Positions 1,920-59,785 of a DNA stretch of 64,000 nucleotides are shown here, piece after piece (the first letter of the stretch is position 1; every line of letters begins with the position of its first letter). Origin of the DNA: Halorutilales archaeon Cl-col2-1 (lineage in GTDB: Archaea > Halobacteriota > Halobacteria > Halobacteriales > Afararchaeaceae); contig CP169074.1 of assembly GCA_041891055.1 (NCBI GenBank), forward strand, positions 32,001 to 96,000. Direction: 5' to 3'. The notes below the pieces were generated by a model. It saw only the letters and a program-made list of their open reading frames with translations, searched no databases and was not told where the DNA came from. The translations under genes and the position numbers were made by a program.

Positions 1920-3350
1920 TCAGTCGCGCTCTTCCTCGACGCCTATCGAGTCGAATATACGTGACTCGACCGCCTCTGCTGTGAGTTCGAGAAGAGTCTC
2001 GCGGTCTTCGCCAGTCTCCCCTATTCCCTTGAAGAGTCCGAGAGGAACCCGGGCGTTGGCTCTTCGGGTGTGTCCCGCGACCTCCCCTATTCCGCCAAAG
2101 GCGTCTTCGAGAACCCTCGCTATGTTGATACGGATGTCGTTAGACCTCGCGGCTATATGTATGTAGTCGTCGGTTATTCCGAAGACAGCCGTAGTATTCA
2201 CGCCTTCGAGTGAGAGGAGATGGTCGGCGGCGGGTATTAGAGCCTCGTTGTCGTTTATGTATCCCGCGTTAGATATGAGGTAGGAACTCCTGACCTCTCT
2301 GTTGTGTATCGAGTCGGCGAGTACGTCGAAGGTCTCGGGGCTCATAGACGGAGACTCTATCTGTTCGAGAAGCTCGTGGTCGGCGAGTGCATAGAGGTAC
2401 GCAGCTGCTGTCAGGTCGGCGGGGGCAGTGTTCCGGAAGTCGTCTGTCGCCGTCCTTATACCGTAGAGTAGAGCCGTCGGAACCTCGTTAGGAACGTCCG
2501 CCTCGGTCTCCTGTATGTACTTCGTCATTATAGTCGATGTACTCCCTAGGTTGGGACGGATGTCCTCGAACTCGGCGTCGACCTCGTACTCCGAGGCTCT
2601 GTTGTCTATGAATATGTCTACCTCCGTACCCTCTTCCTCTACGTTCTCGACGTGGTCATAGACAGCTACTGTTCCGTAGTCGTCGAGGTCGACGCCGCTC
2701 ATTCTAGTGAGATCTATCTCGAGGAGGTTAACGAAAGCCTGGTTCTCTCTGTGTCCGAGGTCTCCCTTGTAGAGTATCTCCGCCTCGACGTCGAAGCTCT
2801 CAGCGATGCTTTCGAGAGCGACGGCGCTCGCTATCGAGTCGGGGTCGGGACTGTCGTATACGAGTATCGCCATCTTTCCGTCGGTCGACTTTATGACATC
2901 GACGAGGTTTGAGACGCGGTACTCCATCTCTCCCGTCTCGACCGCCCGGAGAGCGCTCTGTGCTATAACTGTGGGGGGATTTATGACCGAGTCGGCACCC
3001 TTCTCTATGAGAGTCTCCTGTGAGACGGGGTCGGACGCCCTCACGACGATGTACTGTTCCCTACCCGTCTCACGGAGATTTTCGAGAGCCTCGGCATTGG
3101 CGTCTATGTCGTCCGTAAGTATGAGAACGACGTGTCTGTCGGAGACCTCCTCCGTCGCCTCGGGGTCACGTATGTCCATCTGTATCGCGTTGAGATCCTG
3201 ATCCCTCAGCGACTCGACACGGCTCTCGTCCTTGTCGATTATAGTGATCTCTTTCCCCCTGTTGAGTAGATCCTGAGCCACCTCGTATCCCACACTTCCG
3301 CAGCCGAGTATACCGTACCCGGAGGCGGTGTCGGGGACTCTTTCGACCAT
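1920..3350 (-). CDS. TrkA-N (RCK) + DHH/DHHA1 family phosphoesterase-like protein with degenerate catalytic motifs
   Basis: N-terminal GCGSVG Rossmann/RCK motif and DHH motif I (SPDPDSIASA); the DHH position reads DNR. Confidence 0.8.
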   Translation of the reverse strand: MVERVPDTASGYGILGCGSVGYEVAQDLLNRGKEITIIDKDESRVESLRDQDLNAIQMDIRDPEATEEVSDRHVVLILTDDIDANAEALENLRETGREQYIVVRASDPVSQETLIEKGADSVINPPTVIAQSALRAVETGEMEYRVSNLVDVIKSTDGKMAILVYDSPDPDSIASAVALESIAESFDVEAEILYKGDLGHRENQAFVNLLEIDLTRMSGVDLDDYGTVAVYDHVENVEEEGTEVDIFIDNRASEYEVDAEFEDIRPNLGSTSTIMTKYIQETEADVPNEVPTALLYGIRTATDDFRNTAPADLTAAAYLYALADHELLEQIESPSMSPETFDVLADSIHNREVRSSYLISNAGYINDNEALIPAADHLLSLEGVNTTAVFGITDDYIHIAARSNDIRINIARVLEDAFGGIGEVAGHTRRANARVPLGLFKGIGETGEDRETLLELTAEAVESRIFDSIGVEEERD

Positions 3351-3552
3351 GCCTCAGACAAGACGCGGAGACACTTACATCTTCAGTTTGGACACCGGCG
3401 TGAGAGTTATACGTCCTCAGTCTCCAAACTCTTCCATGGCATCTGTTAGCATCAGTATACCCGACGAGATACACGACGAAGTTCTCGAGTACGCCGAGAA
3501 ACATACCGAGTCGGTCGATCAGGCTTACGTGAAGTACCTCGGGGACAAGCCC

Positions 3553-3650
3553 CGTCACAAGATCTCCGATCTTGTTGGCACGTCAAACAAAGTTTGACGA
3601 ACGTCACGAGAACTTCGTTCTCGCGGGCTCGCAAATCTTCGATTTGCGAA
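3553..3650 (+). repeat. Two tandem 49-bp twin-hairpin repeat units
   Basis: CGTC ACAAGATC TCC GATCTTGT TGGCA CGTCAAAC AAA GTTTGACG AA / CGTC ACGAGAAC TTC GTTCTCGC GGGCT CGCAAATC TTC GATTTGCG AA. Confidence 0.9.
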
Positions 3651-3967
3651 CGAGGCTTCGCCGTTTTGGGTCTGCACCGCACCCGCAGGCGAATTTAATT
3701 CCTCCCGACCTTGTGCATCAGCACTTGGCTGGAATTAACACCCGAACACCTCGATAGTGTCCGTGGGAGTCGGTCGCTCCACCACGACCCGATAGTGCCC
3801 GTCTCACCGCCGTAGCGGGTTTTTGAGAGGCACCACATTTCCATAGTTTACTCAGTCAGCGTTGGATTAAGGTCTTTAACCCGTCTTTGGAGTTTTTCTG
3901 ACTGTTACTCTACTATGCGAACCGTGGTTAGTTAAAAGTTCGTGTCGGCTTCACCCTCGGGGTCAAG

Positions 3968-4019
3968 TCAAGGAAAATCTTTGATTTTCCGTATCCCAAA
4001 AAGCTCTGCTTTTTGAAGA
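3968..4019. repeat. 52-bp twin-hairpin element (variant subfamily)
   Basis: GGAAAATC TTT GATTTTCC and CAAAAAGC TCT GCTTTTTG hairpins lying inside CCTCGGGGTCAAG|CCCCGAGG. Confidence 0.8.
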
Positions 4020-4157
4020 CCCCGAGGCACTCGCCTTGCTTTCTGTAGAACTCGTTGAGTTCGCACTCAACAACGTCGAACATGACCCCGACGAGGACAC
4101 CTACATAATGTGACTCTAACGGGACTGTTTTTAGTGCCCAAGCCGTACTCCGAGTAA

Positions 4158-4613
4158 ATGGCGATCACCGACAGGATCTATCTCAAGGACGCGAACGCCA
4201 TATCGAGTCAGATCGACAGGAGGATGCCACGTAACATCTTCAGCGGCGCGGCTCTCGACATTCTTTACTCGACTGAGGCTCTCGAAAGCCTCGACCCCGG
4301 GACACGTGATCAGCTTCTCGAGTTCGTCGAGGACTTCCTCGACTGCGGCTGTAAGGACGCGCCCTACTGTGGACATCCCGAGGAGAAGTTCATGGAGTAC
4401 CTCCTCGAACTCCGTTCGGCGGGTCTCTCTCCCGACGAGATAGTTGAGACGATGGAAGCGGAGTACGGTCTCTACGCCTACACGGGTGACATACTCGACT
4501 TCCTCGACTCCGCCGTCAGAAACCTCGAAGCCTTCGAGAAGATAGCCGGCGCGGCTGGTAAGGACGGAGTGAAAAGTAGGTCCGAGAGACTGAGACGCGA
4601 CCTGGTCGAGTAG
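4158..4613 (+). CDS. DUF5814-like protein (resembles C-terminal domain of archaeal helicases)
   Basis: MAITDRIYLK start and FLDCGCKDAPYCGHPEEKF Cys/His cluster. Confidence 0.7.
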   Translation: MAITDRIYLKDANAISSQIDRRMPRNIFSGAALDILYSTEALESLDPGTRDQLLEFVEDFLDCGCKDAPYCGHPEEKFMEYLLELRSAGLSPDEIVETMEAEYGLYAYTGDILDFLDSAVRNLEAFEKIAGAAGKDGVKSRSERLRRDLVE

Positions 4614-4674
4614 AAGTAGAACCAGAACCCGAACCGGAAGTGGATTTATACGGTTTGAGAACCTAATTCTTGGT

Positions 4675-6657
4675 GTGAAGACTCGTACGGGAGTACTTGA
4701 CACAGTCGTTTTCGGGGTCGACGTACAGAGCGGCGACGTGAGAGGTGACTCTCCCTCTTACGCCGTAGTGGCTTTCGACGGTGAGAACATCGACAGGGAC
4801 GTAGTCTCACACAGGAAGCTTCTGCGTCTCATACAGAGAGAGGAGCCCGACATAGTCGCGACTGACAACATGTACGAGGTAGCCGAGGACAAGAAAGACC
4901 TCGTGGGGTTCCTACGTAACCTACCCTCCGAGACGCGTTTAGTACAGGTCACGGGAGACGAACGTCCCGAACCCCTCTCCCGAGTCGCGGCGCGCCACGG
5001 AGTGCCGTACGGAAAGAAGCCCATAAAGGAGGCGGAGGCGGCGGCACGTCTCGCCGCCGACAACGTCGGATACGTCGTCTCGGCGTTCGAGGACACGACA
5101 CGTCTCAAGGTGTCGAGGGGACGGTCGACGGGGAAGGGCGGCTGGAGCCAAGACCGTTACACGAGAAGGATACACGGCGCGGTCAGGAGACGTTCGAGAG
5201 GGATAGAGGAGAAGCTCGACAACGAGGGCTTTGAGTACGATCTCGATGTCACAGAGAAGTACGGCGGATACTCGAACGCCGTCTTCACTGTCGAAGCGAG
5301 AGCCGGTGAGGTACCTGTGTCGTCGGAGAGGTCGGGTGACGTGCGTGTCGAGGTCGAGGAGGTGCGTAAGGACGGAATAGAGTTCGAGCCCCTCGCCCGC
5401 AGACGTGACTACGTCATAGTCGGCATGGATCCAGGTACGACCACAGCCGTAGGAGTCGTGGGACTCGACGGTGAGATACTCAACGTCGTGAGCACACGTA
5501 CCTCCGACATCTCTGAGATCATAGAGTGGATAGTCGAGAGGGGACGTCCCGTAGTCGTCGCCGCAGACGTCACTCCGATGCCCGACACAGTCGAGAAGGT
5601 TAGGAGGAGCTTCGACGCCGCCGGATGGAAGCCCGACGAGGATCTCCGTGTCAACCATAAACAGCGCGTAACCTCGGAGTACTCCTACGACAACGACCAC
5701 GAGAGGGACGCAGTCGCCGCCGCACTCTTCGCGTTCGACGAGTACGACGAGAGGTTCGAGAGAATATCACGTAAGGTACCTCCGGGACTGGAGGACGGCG
5801 AGGTAATACGCCGCGTGGTCGCGTACGAGGAGTCGGTTGAGACGGCGATAGATGTCCTCACCGAGACAGAAGACGAAGACGACGAGGACGGCGGACACTC
5901 GCCGCGCGAACTCACTGAGGACGAGAGACGTATAAAGGATCTCGAGAAACAGGTCGAACGTCTCAAGTCGTACGTCGACGACCTCGAAGGGACAGTAGAG
6001 GAGAAAAACGACGAGATCGACGAGCTTCAGGAACGTCTCTCCGAGAGACGCCGAGAGGAGAAGAAGGAGATACGTAAGACCGACGAGGTCAGACGTCTCG
6101 AAAAGAAAAACCAGAGGCTCGAACACAAGCTCACGTCGGTCGAGGAGAAGTACGACGACCTCAGATCGAAGTTCGAGAGACTCAAGAAGTTCTGGAAGCT
6201 CGACCACTCGAACTTCTCCGACGTCGCCGGAGACGCCGACGGCTACACCTCGGTCAAGATAATAGACAAGTTCACGAAGTCGGCGATAGACGAGACAGAC
6301 GAACGCACGGGTCTCGTCGAGGACGACGTCATACTCCTGCGTGACGCGAGCGGAGCGGGTAGAAGCACTGCCGAGAAGCTCGCATCGGTCGAGCCGCGTC
6401 TCGTCCTCAAGAACGGAGGGATCTCTGAGGTAGCCGACGAGGTACTATTCGAGAACCGGATTCCCGTCGGAGACGCCGACGATGTCAAGGTACGTGAGGT
6501 CGATGACCTCGCGATAGGCTTAGAGTCGGACGTCGAGGATGTCATAGAGGACTGGGAGGAGAGAGCCGAGGAGAGGAAGAGAAAGAGGAGTTCGGAGATG
6601 GTCGACAGCCTCATAACCGAGTACAGGGCTGAGAGAAAGAGAGAGACGAGCGACTAA
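4675..6657 (+). CDS. DUF460/COG2433 protein (RNase H-like domains + coiled coil)
   Basis: FGVDVQSG, GRSTGKGGWSQDRY and GMDPGTTTAVG motifs; long coiled coil. Confidence 0.85.
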   Translation: MKTRTGVLDTVVFGVDVQSGDVRGDSPSYAVVAFDGENIDRDVVSHRKLLRLIQREEPDIVATDNMYEVAEDKKDLVGFLRNLPSETRLVQVTGDERPEPLSRVAARHGVPYGKKPIKEAEAAARLAADNVGYVVSAFEDTTRLKVSRGRSTGKGGWSQDRYTRRIHGAVRRRSRGIEEKLDNEGFEYDLDVTEKYGGYSNAVFTVEARAGEVPVSSERSGDVRVEVEEVRKDGIEFEPLARRRDYVIVGMDPGTTTAVGVVGLDGEILNVVSTRTSDISEIIEWIVERGRPVVVAADVTPMPDTVEKVRRSFDAAGWKPDEDLRVNHKQRVTSEYSYDNDHERDAVAAALFAFDEYDERFERISRKVPPGLEDGEVIRRVVAYEESVETAIDVLTETEDEDDEDGGHSPRELTEDERRIKDLEKQVERLKSYVDDLEGTVEEKNDEIDELQERLSERRREEKKEIRKTDEVRRLEKKNQRLEHKLTSVEEKYDDLRSKFERLKKFWKLDHSNFSDVAGDADGYTSVKIIDKFTKSAIDETDERTGLVEDDVILLRDASGAGRSTAEKLASVEPRLVLKNGGISEVADEVLFENRIPVGDADDVKVREVDDLAIGLESDVEDVIEDWEERAEERKRKRSSEMVDSLITEYRAERKRETSD

Positions 6658-11747: not shown

Positions 11748-13004
11748 CTAGAAAGTCGACATCTCGCCGTGTATTATGTCACGTGTGAGGTCAGTCACAT
11801 TTTCGAGGGCGTCGTCTGTGATCGACTCTATCTCGTACTCGACGTCGGAGAGTTCGACGCCTTCCTCTGTCTGAACCTGGAGACCGGCTATCTGTGGCTC
11901 GTCTATCGGCTTTCCTATCTGTGACAGGAGCTTTACCCTCAGGTCTTCTATGCCGTCGACCTCGTCGACGACCTTCCTCGCTATACGTATCGAGAGGAGG
12001 TTGTAGATCTTGCCTATGTGGTTGACGGGGTTCTTTCCGCTCGTGGCTTCGAGGCTCATGTTCCTACTCGGGGTTATGAGACCGTTGGCGCGGTTGCCCC
12101 TTCCGACGCTTCCGTCGTCTCCCATCTCCGCGCTCGTTCCCGTCTCTGTGAGGTAGAAAGTCCCCTCGTCCCGAGGACTCTTTGAGTCCTCGTGTGCACG
12201 CGAATCTTCAGATTCGCGAACGTCGTAGTCGTCGGCGGTGTTGACTGCGACGTTGAGGTCTCTGTCAGTGTGTTTCTCGGCTGTCGAGGCAACGAACTCC
12301 CTCACGTCCTCCATCACGCTGATATACTCGTCGGCGTCCTCGACGTACTCCGAGACCGTCGCCGCCGCGACCGTGAGATCTAACGTCTCGCCCTCGCGTT
12401 TCCCCATCACTTTGACGTCCTCTCCCACCGCGGGAATCTCGTGTCTCAGGTCTTCGTAGATCTGTGTCTCGGTCTCGTAGACTACCTTCTCGGTCTCGGA
12501 GAAGGGCGCGTGACCCACTCCGAACGAGGTGTCGTTTGCCTTCGGAACCGCACCGTCCTCGAGCTTGAAGACGTCCTTGAGATCTGTCGACCCCTCGCCC
12601 ATACGTACGTCGACGACGACCTCGGATTCAAGGTCGATATTCTGGAGAGTGTCGTCGATATAGTCGCGTGCCGCCTTGACAGCGAGGGTGTCGGTGGGTA
12701 TCGCCTCGCCCTCGAACTCCTTAGTCGCCCTTCCGACTATCAGGACGTAGATCGGCTCGACGACCTCACCGCCACCGAAGTCGGGCTGGCTCCGTCCTGC
12801 GACCAACTGACACTCATCTGTGTTGTGGTGGAGGACAGCACCGAACCTGTCGAGGTACTCCTGAGACAGCGCGCGCATCACCGACTCCGCAATGCCGTCA
12901 CAGATAGAGTCGGGATGTCCCATTCCCTTTCTCTCGGCGAGCTCGATCCTCTGTTGATCCACAGGGATCTCGTCGAGAGACTCCACTCTTATATTACGCT
13001 CCAT
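11748..13004 (-). CDS. mat: Archaeal S-adenosylmethionine synthetase, carrying an 18-aa in-frame insertion
   Basis: [54 protein letters not shown]; likely start ATG 13004. Confidence 0.95.
12168..12221 (+). repeat. 54-bp twin-hairpin element inserted in frame within mat
   Basis: CGTC C CGAGGACTC TTT GAGTCCTCG TGTGCA CGCGAATC TTCA GATTCGCG AA CGTC; encodes [18 protein letters not shown] on the minus strand. Confidence 0.88.
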
Positions 13005-13101
13005 ACACAGAGTCGTCGCCGGCTGATCTAATAACTTCTGATCACATCTCCCGACGTGGGTTAAAGTTATGAGTATAGACTCCTCTAACATAACCTAACG
13101 C

Positions 13102-46641: not shown

Positions 46642-46705
46642 GCTGGTTTGTTCCAGAGAAGACGCCTTGAGGCTTTCTATACCTCTCTGGTCTCAGGTTC
46701 GTGAG

Positions 46706-46803
46706 TTCGTAAATCTTGATTTCGTTAGCCCGCGAGAACGGAGTTCTCGGGACGTTCAGAAATCAAAGATTTCTGAGCCCACGAGAGCAAAGCTCTCGGG
46801 ACG
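46706..46803 (-). repeat. Two tandem 49-bp twin-hairpin units (reverse orientation; the 46706-46754 unit is partly degenerate)
   Basis: Reverse complement of 46755-46803 = CGTC CCGAGAGC TTT GCTCTCGT GGGCT CAGAAATC TTT GATTTCTG AA, the same architecture as 3602-3650. Confidence 0.88.
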
Positions 46804-46847
46804 CTTCCAAAATTGATTTATACTGATAAATCAGCATTATTCTATAT

Positions 46848-59262: not shown

Positions 59263-59517
59263 TTATCTGTTGTTGTCTATCCATCTGCAAAACTCGTCGA
59301 AGTCATCCGCGCCAGCTTGGTCAGCTATGTTACGTAATGTGCCGGTTCGTAGCGATTCGTGTCGAGGTACTGTAACAGTACGCGGATTAGTATCGTGGTT
59401 TTCGGGAGGCTCCCACTTCAGAATCATATGATCTCCTGTCGTCCGATCCCAGACGAAGTTGCCTTTGTTAACTAGAACTCGGGCGACATCATCCCCCGAG
59501 AAGTTACGTGTCACCAT
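59263..59517 (-). CDS. hicA: HicA-family toxin
   Basis: FSGDDV, RTTGDHMIL, VTVPRH..LRTGTLRNI..QAG. Confidence 0.88.
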   Translation of the reverse strand: MVTRNFSGDDVARVLVNKGNFVWDRTTGDHMILKWEPPENHDTNPRTVTVPRHESLRTGTLRNIADQAGADDFDEFCRWIDNNR

Positions 59518-59524
59518 CCTTCTA

Positions 59525-59785
59525 CTACTTCAGAAAGTCAGGGAGTTCGCCTCCGGCTTCGTTATCGTTGTCGTTGTCCTCGGGATCTATGCCGATCTCA
59601 CGGAGCTCTTCCTCGGTAGGCTCACGTCCTATCTCGCCCTTGTGTAAGGCGACCGCCTCCTCAAGGTTATCGAGGGCTTCTTCCTTCGTCGATCCCTGAG
59701 ACGCCACTCCCTCATCTTCATCCTTAGCCACCCAGACGCCGTCTTCTTGGGTCAGGGTTATCTTGCGTTTTATTTCGGTACTCAT
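59525..59785 (-). CDS. hicB: HicB-family antitoxin (short form)
   Basis: EDGVWVA...VASQGSTKEEALDNLEEAV. Confidence 0.88.
   Translation of the reverse strand: MSTEIKRKITLTQEDGVWVAKDEDEGVASQGSTKEEALDNLEEAVALHKGEIGREPTEEELREIGIDPEDNDNDNEAGGELPDFLK

Follow-up and report, generated by a model that had tools for sequence, protein, structure and literature searches.

What are the short paired hairpins, similar in layout and different in sequence, that recur in a 64,000-nucleotide stretch of the chromosome of Halorutilales archaeon Cl-col2-1 (GenBank assembly GCA_041891055.1, contig CP169074.1, positions 32,001 to 96,000 of the forward strand), two of which adjoin at positions 3553-3650? We call the whole stretch the window and give all host coordinates in its numbering. 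The original prediction, made from the letters of the window, was that these repeats form a structure-conserved, non-coding mobile element that is moved in trans, and it is supported by copies elsewhere, by empty sites, by covariation and by the lack of any transposase in the window. Twin-hairpin units of about 50 bases are inserted at four places in the host chromosome; one of these is an essential gene, and two are the opposite ends of a different mobile element. We are confident that the units belong to a family of non-autonomous mini transposable elements that is widespread in Halobacteria. The family is a broad, structure-defined variant of an obscure known kind, and is not categorically new.

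Twin-hairpin units in the window and their relatives

A unit measures about 49-56 nt and has a first hairpin of 7-9 bp, a linker of 5-6 nt and a second hairpin of 8 bp, both hairpins closing on 3-nt loops, and in the window the 5' end reads CGTC-N. All the units described originally are present, and the boundaries of 3553-3650, 3968-4019 and 12168-12221 are also the indel boundaries in comparisons with empty sites, within an ambiguity of 2-4 nt. Unit 1 (3553..3601, minus strand) and unit 2 (3602..3650, plus strand) make up one 98-nt block in the left terminal palindrome of a PATE-like repeat. A 52-nt, A/T-rich variant of ambiguous strand occupies 3968..4019, and a 54-nt unit (12168..12221, plus strand) lies in frame, as 18 codons, in the gene for S-adenosylmethionine synthetase (archaeal MAT). 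The fourth locus holds an intergenic unit (46755..46803, minus strand) between divergent serA-like and AMP-binding-enzyme genes, adjoined by a degenerate unit (46706..46754, minus strand), recognised from its sequence, with an intact first hairpin and a bulged second one. In single-stranded DNA folding, five units form both hairpins, at z-scores from -3.8 to -5.8; the values are -4.25 and -3.76 for units 1 and 2, -5.8 for 3968..4019 and -4.83 for 46755..46803, compared with -1.23 for the degenerate unit (folded as 46703-46755).

The simplest account, that a chance cluster of palindromes has been picked out of a GC-moderate genome, draws on the total count. The overall number of short hairpins in the window, whose GC content is about 56%, equals the expectation from 30 dinucleotide-preserving shuffles of the window, with no enrichment (94 against 91.6 +/- 7.7 for stems of at least 6 bp, and 17 against 14.9 for stems of at least 7 bp). 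It is the arrangement that departs from expectation. There are 16 perfect hairpins with a stem of at least 7 bp and a loop of 3 nt in the 64 kb, 10 of them at the reported sites, and the seven pairs of hairpins spaced 2-9 nt apart all fall at these sites, against a shuffled mean of 0.93 and a maximum of 4. Together with the E values of an independent model (down to 2.4e-12) and the presence of copies in about 20 genera, both described below, this leaves chance with a negligible probability.

Relatives were found among plasmids. In what follows, comparison loci carry L-labels, R1 is a covariance model and A5 and A6 are alignments. When 3545-3660 was compared with the plasmid collection by blastn, haloarchaeal megaplasmids matched weakly but consistently, with identities of about 80%. 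A canonical copy taken from one of the loci (L004) then matched 50 places spread over 30 plasmid records; 29 of these records are haloarchaeal and represent about 20 genera, and the remaining one is from Methylobacterium, matched at chance level (E 0.6). Further copies, as the original prediction entailed, therefore exist. The common form is 54 nt long. It opens with TCGTY and closes with RACGA, and between them lie two 8-bp stems, each with a 3-nt loop, the first of the CGAGAGAC type and the second of the CGAAAATC type, separated by the linker TGATCA. The two ends with their adjoining hairpin arms are inverted copies of each other, and the two halves are mutually inverted except for the inner stem bases. 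Mean column identity among copies is 63-84%, and unit lengths across the family are 49-66 nt (52-66 nt for the plasmid relatives, with a dimer of 98 nt), which is too short for a transposase gene.

R1 was built from 11 copies, all outside the window, and was run over the window with filters off. It recovers five of the six window units with E values from 2.4e-12 to 1.5e-8, and the next unrelated match scores 12 bits (E 0.11). The matches are 3552-3604 for unit 1 (31.7 bits, E 1.5e-8), 3601-3653 for unit 2 (36.3 bits, E 3.9e-10), 3967-4020 on the minus strand for the 52-nt variant (34.9 bits, E 1.2e-09; 29.6 bits on the plus strand), 12166-12223 for the MAT unit (33.4 bits, E 4e-9) and 46752-46804 for the intergenic unit (42.6 bits, E 2.4e-12). 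The unit at 46706-46754 is not reported by R1 even at E <= 10, and with its bulged second hairpin and z of -1.2 it is degenerate, which corrects the earlier description. The orientation of the pairs also had to be revised in part: both had been described as head-to-tail, which is right for 46706-46803, but unit 1 is matched better on the minus strand (31.7 bits) than on the plus strand (14.1 bits), and the block at 3553-3650 is better taken as an inverted, head-to-head dimer.

Plasmid-borne copies score 52-80 bits with R1 and the window copies 31.7-42.6; the window units, being matched by R1, are therefore diverged members of the plasmid-borne family. For a chromosomal comparison we used the MAT loci of other haloarchaea, obtained by searching genome contigs with the MAT protein and comprising 80 loci with 10-kb flanks. 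These 1,436,934 bases hold three full-length R1 matches (L078, L020 and L040), of which L078 belongs to the R1 seed. Judging from these counts, with five strong matches in 64 kb against three in 1.44 Mb, the source lineage seems to be expanded in units. The phage collection had no match to the canonical unit. A search of Rfam with the whole window at gathering thresholds returned only a tRNA, and 3300-4800 at E <= 1 returned one chance-level match.

Insertion sites and paired changes in the stems

Comparison with homologous sites shows that the units are insertions at three of the four window loci. The first two lie in a PATE-like, non-coding dispersed repeat at 3529..4050, the ends of which were taken from A5, the right boundary being approximate. 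Near each end this host element has a GC-rich palindrome, the two being similar to each other, an arrangement that it shares with PATEs and IS200/IS605 insertion sequences (IS); units interrupt both palindromes. The core of the repeat (3654-3966) matches 21 haloarchaeal plasmid records at 37 places, one of them under an annotated TnpB gene, and from end to end it is 88% identical to a copy on a Haladaptatus plasmid, the value for Halobaculum and Halorubrum copies being 83%; since the window MAT is at most 68% identical to its 80 homologues, the 88% identity of the core suggests a recent horizontal spread of the repeat. In all three homologous copies of the repeat (L099, L100 and L101, from three genera) both palindromes are uninterrupted and the 98-nt and 52-nt blocks are absent, and none of the three gave an R1 match. 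The 98-nt block (3553-3650) sits in the left palindrome with a boundary that is ambiguous by 2 nt, and the 52-nt block (3968-4019) sits in the right palindrome exactly between TCAAG and CCCC, which are contiguous in the empty copies. An open reading frame (ORF) of 53 codons at 3436-3597 (plus strand), with an RHH-like start and without a Pfam match, enters this repeat and ends inside unit 1; either the ORF is spurious or the insertions have replaced the 3' end of a gene.

The third locus is the MAT gene itself (11748..13091, minus strand; Pfam AdoMet_Synthase, E 1.9e-171; PDB 4l4q, E 9e-132), in which the unit on the plus strand is antisense to the gene. All 80 homologous MAT genes lack the 54-nt block, the tblastn gap being 18 residues in 79 of them and 20 residues in one, and the solved archaeal MAT 4l4q also lacks the 18 residues. 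The Pfam match in the window protein accordingly spans 412 residues over 395 model positions. CGTC occurs at 12167-12170 and again at 12221-12224, and this 4-nt repeat makes the insert boundary ambiguous by 4 nt. Inspection by eye, the only form of search made, found no convincing bulge-helix-bulge intron motif in the insert. The longest MAT ORF has about 30 additional N-terminal residues that fall outside the Pfam and PDB matches, and the true start is probably an internal Met near residue 30. The nearest relatives of this MAT are from metagenome-assembled genomes (MAGs) of uncultured Halobacteriales with 67-68% identity, so that there is no close relative among the species representatives searched.

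Empty sites also exist for copies elsewhere. A second dispersed, unannotated haloarchaeal repeat, present at 29 places on 20 plasmid records, carries the unit at two bonds 25 nt apart in different genera (L001 2840-3160, L006, L007, L093, L094, L096, L102 and L106), in three subfamilies and both orientations. For these two positions each copy is the other's empty site, which defines an exact 54-nt insert, TCGTC..AACGA, with no duplicated base. The empty-site alleles that the original prediction called for were thus found for three of the four window loci and for copies elsewhere. No target duplication appears in the exact comparisons of filled and empty sites, those of the common form and of 3968-4019, and the flanking repeats of 2 nt at 3553-3650 and 4 nt at the MAT copy are indistinguishable from microhomology.

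The target rule was derived from 30 copies outside the window, tabulated with their flanks. G precedes the insert in 29 of them and C follows it in 28, and more widely purines tend to precede the bond and pyrimidines to follow it. Ten of the copies interrupt a GGGG-TCAAG-CCCC-type palindrome where its loop meets the 3' arm, or next to that point (CAAG^CYCC); five lie at GGCCG^CCTCC in the second repeat and three at ACTG^CCTCG, 25 nt upstream in the same repeat; three, from three genera, add 18 residues in frame at a single point of tnpA that shortly precedes the HUH motif; one is at the 3' end of a tnpB; and eight are elsewhere, among them one in-frame 66-nt copy in a PglZ gene. In total 22 of the 30 are in IS200/IS605-type or PATE-like repeats or in tnpA. 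At GGCCG^CCTCC the copies come from three sequence subfamilies and point either way, and so represent several independent insertions at one bond. The units are shown to insert as blocks at a precise bond, which in the common form falls between a G and a C, free of duplication, in either orientation, and repeatedly in a few contexts. Adjacent or nested groups of two to four members, some truncated, occur at IS ends (L003 2924-3048; L011 14906-15059 and 34749-34855), and the same targets seem to collect repeated insertions.

Copies whose length is a multiple of three are tolerated in frame inside genes, as in MAT, tnpA and PglZ. The tnpA copies (L005 2740-3192, L008 ~2804-3055 and L097 ~1505-1558, from Haloferax, Halobellus and Natrinema) occupy the same codon position upstream of the HUH motif. 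The L005 tnpA with its 18-residue insert is annotated as intact, and an IS lineage may spread with a unit inside its own transposase gene. The PglZ copy (L010 20002-20067) is a 66-nt member with longer stems, in frame in a PglZ-domain gene of a BREX-like defence cluster on a plasmid of the halophilic archaeon DL31.

Such a preference for IS ends could mean that the units are not elements in their own right but belong to the IS200/IS605 ends themselves, or to the guide-RNA scaffold of the tnpB 3' end, and persisted as PATE fragments when the IS decayed. The first annotated match does lie at a tnpB 3' end beside tnpA (L003), a second tnpB remnant has units at its 3' end (L005), and two of the four window loci are within a PATE-like repeat. 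The three homologous repeat copies with intact palindromes and without units speak against it, as do the cases in which the unit splits a recognisable palindrome at one defined bond (L005 and others; an intact copy of the first, TCAAG-type palindrome adjoins tnpA in L005). Copies also lie within MAT, within PglZ and in ordinary intergenic DNA where no IS is close by, and at different bonds of one host repeat. The empty sites rule out a tnpB right end or guide-RNA scaffold, and we consider decay of an IS end a very improbable origin.

The stems of the units vary in pairs, as had been noticed from the window copies. A6 contains 28 copies on their best strand and was compared with 500 shuffles; two of its rows (L011b and L020), misaligned by MAFFT in the second hairpin, were kept and count against the structure. 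Standard pairs are formed in 92.0% of the cells, against a shuffled mean of 80.1%; 18 of the 20 pairs are changed on both sides, against 6.4; and there are 60 double-change cells, against 12.9. In each of five covariation measures the observed value was reached by none of the 500 shuffles, and when the 3' partner was slid by 1-3 columns as a control, pairing fell to 25-49%. The first hairpin is paired in 98.6% of cells with double changes in all eight pairs, the second in 92.0% with double changes in seven of eight, and a 4-bp closing helix formed by the two ends in 79% with double changes in three of four. The covariation is thus strong.

Across the 30 copies nearly all the loops read TTC, TCC or TTT or, as precise complements of these, GAA, GGA or AAA, and one stem type bears either orientation of the loop. 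At an orthologous site on three Natribaculum plasmids (L002 2996-3049, L009 20002-20055 and L011 20000-20053) the first stem is the same and the loops are TTC, GGA and TCC. A loop inverted in place is best explained by a hairpin or cruciform that forms in the cell. The earlier remark on stable GNA loops holds for one of the two loop orientations (GAA/GGA) and does not extend to the other, since TTC and TCC also occur.

Stems that covary as in a functional RNA, and a locus between two divergent genes, would also suit a host feature that does not move, such as the sites of a dimeric regulator, hairpins that end or stabilise transcripts, or a small structured RNA; bacterial REP-like elements are known to have been co-opted for regulatory and RNA roles. 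Yet no Rfam family matches the units in the window, and copies lie antisense inside the MAT coding sequence, inside another repeat and in both orientations at one site. A regulator site would keep its sequence, but here the stems change in pairs, and presence and absence at homologous sites show insertion. A non-mobile host feature is therefore quite unlikely, and single copies might be exapted for a host function.

Relation to known mobile repeats

The nearest known kind of element is the SMR-A group of 'small mobile repeats' of Haloquadratum walsbyi (HqIRS42, HqIRS43 and HqIRS55), which Dyall-Smith et al. 2011 (PMC3119063) describe as non-coding elements of about 110 bp, with more than 95% identity within a type, with inverted terminal repeats, without target duplication and with no mobilising enzyme identified. 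The same paper reports that they strongly prefer the near-terminal palindromes of PATEs and IS605-type transposons (PMC3119063). Like SMR-A so described, the twin-hairpin units are too short to code, have inverted ends and insert without duplication in IS and PATE palindromes: two of the four window loci, and 22 of the 30 other copies in IS/PATE-type contexts, 10 of these in the palindrome. They differ from the SMR-A of that description in their size (49-66 nt, with dimers of 98), in a column identity of 63-84%, in keeping structure over sequence and in their distribution over about 20 genera. The behaviour of the units matches that of SMR-A in the published description, on which the comparison rests. 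The caveat of a possible overlap with the Haloquadratum repeats that had been raised was thus apt, and it makes the family less novel. It is a speculation that SMR-A might be dimers of twin-hairpin units; the 98-nt inverted dimer resembles an element of about 110 bp with long inverted ends. R1 had no match in 68 kb of Haloquadratum DNA (plasmid PL47 and a 21-kb MAG locus), and no SMR-like inverted repeats were found in plasmid PL47. Our literature search, with subscription journals outside its coverage, found no paper on a twin-hairpin family, and the terms SMR and HqIRS in PMC3119063 alone.

PATEs and IS200/IS605 elements (IS605-type and IS1341-type) share with the units end hairpins, the lack of target duplication and abundance in haloarchaea. 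PATEs, however, have no inverted terminal repeats and derive from IS by deletion of the core, whereas the units have inverted ends and foreign stems and are inserted into PATE and IS ends. The unit stems do not resemble the GC-rich palindromes in the PATE and IS copies that were examined, and the units are thus distinct from PATEs. The REP/REPIN sequences of bacteria, with their Y1 transposase RAYT, are likewise short, non-coding hairpin repeats, sometimes in inverted doublets, and are presumed to be moved in trans via a DNA hairpin. The units differ in that no RAYT-like gene flanked by them was seen in any locus, in that copies are not purely extragenic and in their occurrence in Archaea; the REP end motif GTAG also seems to differ from the unit ends. 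The earlier comparison with REP/RAYT is an analogy, since any Y1 gene linked to the element is linked to it as a target.

Rickettsia palindromic elements (RPE), which are 100-150 bp long and restricted to Rickettsia, resemble the units in persisting in frame in conserved protein genes (here 18 codons in MAT and tnpA and 22 in PglZ), but have no sequence relation to them, and most twin-hairpin copies are non-genic. Tiny, non-coding mobile repeats with two hairpins are also known from organelle genomes, namely the double-hairpin elements of fungal mitochondria and the repetitive hairpin-forming elements of sponge mitochondria. We know of no enzyme for the mitochondrial double-hairpin elements and of no description of IS-end targeting by them, and they have no sequence relation to the units. 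Classical MITEs are similarly small and non-autonomous with terminal inverted repeats, but have ends in common with a parent DDE transposon, and target duplication is usual for them. For the units neither is seen, and no parent element with the unit's ends was seen in any comparison locus.

Mobilisation and significance

What could move such an element? The absence of a mobilising enzyme from the window, as noted earlier, was borne out: there is no transposase among the 69 window ORFs scanned, and tblastn with TnpA and TnpB found none in the window. Having no coding capacity, the element must depend for its movement on an enzyme supplied in trans. In the mechanism that we propose the unit would be recognised as a folded structure, by its hairpins in single-stranded or cruciform DNA, and among known enzyme types the likeliest catalyst would be a single-strand transposase of the Y1/HUH kind (IS200/IS605 TnpA or RAYT). 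It is the first candidate because insertion is duplication-free and bond-precise and the targets are hairpin-forming. We propose the Y1/HUH route tentatively, as a possibility with less than even chances, and we are about evenly divided on whether some enzyme outside the known kinds does the work. Insertion in a terminal palindrome should destroy the hairpin that the transposase binds and so disable that IS or PATE end; the authors of the SMR-A work drew an equal inference for their elements (PMC3119063).

Several observations weigh against an IS-targeting mobile family that is moved by such a transposase. No mobilising enzyme was found, and tnpA is linked to the units as a target and not as a partner: elsewhere, a tnpA gene near a copy either has the unit within it or adjoins a target palindrome, and the flanking units that a RAYT gene would have are missing. 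The hairpin stems are unlike the palindromes of the IS and PATE copies compared. The classical TnpA reaction also fits poorly with inverted ends and only about 5 nt from each end to the foot of the hairpin, with a flanking G and C that are both conserved, and with both orientations at one site. The figure of 22 in 30 copies in IS-related contexts is indicative and biased, because the copies were found by similarity; for the eight second-repeat copies the IS605 link comes solely from a similar small palindrome, and all matches of the repeat are unannotated. The window copies deviate from the common form at their ends and have flanking repeats of 2-4 nt (CG, CGTC), and the insertion rule may differ between subfamilies. 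In DNA palindromes, template switching inside the hairpin can produce paired changes just as selection can, so that the covariation may stem partly from hairpin-templated mutation. The pair at 46706-46803, the flanks of which are part of no plasmid-borne repeat, has no empty allele. Finally, the host copy count covers the 64-kb window alone, and the best MAT relative is 67-68% identical.

The inverted ends, the short distance from end to hairpin, the conserved flanks and the insertion in both orientations suggest a two-fold symmetric reaction. The units would then still be mobile, but through a symmetric reaction on duplex or cruciform DNA, catalysed by a kind of enzyme not yet linked to transposition and not by Y1/HUH, and we judge this to be a strong contender with a probability just short of even. 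The unit is close to two-fold symmetry, with inverted ends of about 13 nt, one hairpin arm included, and with a central linker that is palindromic in the common form. The target reads purine-purine-G^C-pyrimidine-pyrimidine, with its two flanking bases conserved in 29 and 28 of the 30 copies and both orientations at one bond. The inverted ends of the SMR are, according to PMC3119063, unrelated to any transposon, and their mobilisation is there called enigmatic, which also favours a symmetric reaction. Against it, there is no known candidate gene, HUH enzymes typically insert bluntly and without duplication, and the sequences that are hit form hairpins. If the target were short and ended in G on either strand, the two orientations would be explained as well. 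A serine-recombinase route of the IS607 type was considered and set aside. Such a route has the two ends and the target share a dinucleotide, and the common-form junctions share none.

Going further, the units might be a pan-haloarchaeal hyperparasite of IS200/IS605-TnpB elements, moved by an undescribed reaction on folded two-hairpin DNA that inserts it at a G^C bond, in either orientation and without duplication, with a preference for the hairpins to which the IS transposase has to bind, and disabling transposons as it spreads; we think this rather doubtful. If it is true, the loop inversion would be the trace of hairpins forming in living cells.

The units of the window lie among core-chromosome genes, including those for CTP synthase, GMP synthase, ThiI, the Suf system, RtcB with archease, SHMT and topoisomerase VI. 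The window also carries a DabA/DabB-like carbon transporter pair and, at 59263-59785, a HicA-like toxin-antitoxin pair.

For haloarchaeal biology, the finding extends the SMR class, so far one species (Haloquadratum), to a structure-defined family that can be modelled and that occurs in about 20 haloarchaeal genera, and the question of what moves these elements becomes testable by phylogenetic profiling and biochemistry. It has a practical side for annotation, since the units add 18-22 residues in frame to the conserved proteins MAT, TnpA and PglZ and create or extend spurious small ORFs. The paired stem changes and the loop inversion provide a natural data set on the dynamics of DNA hairpins in polyploid, high-salt cells. 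The favoured targets resemble the palindromes at the ends of IS200/IS605 and TnpB elements, and if these targets are, as seems plausible, the hairpins that transposases bind, the family may limit or reshape the elements that are ancestral to the RNA-guided nucleases TnpB and Cas12.

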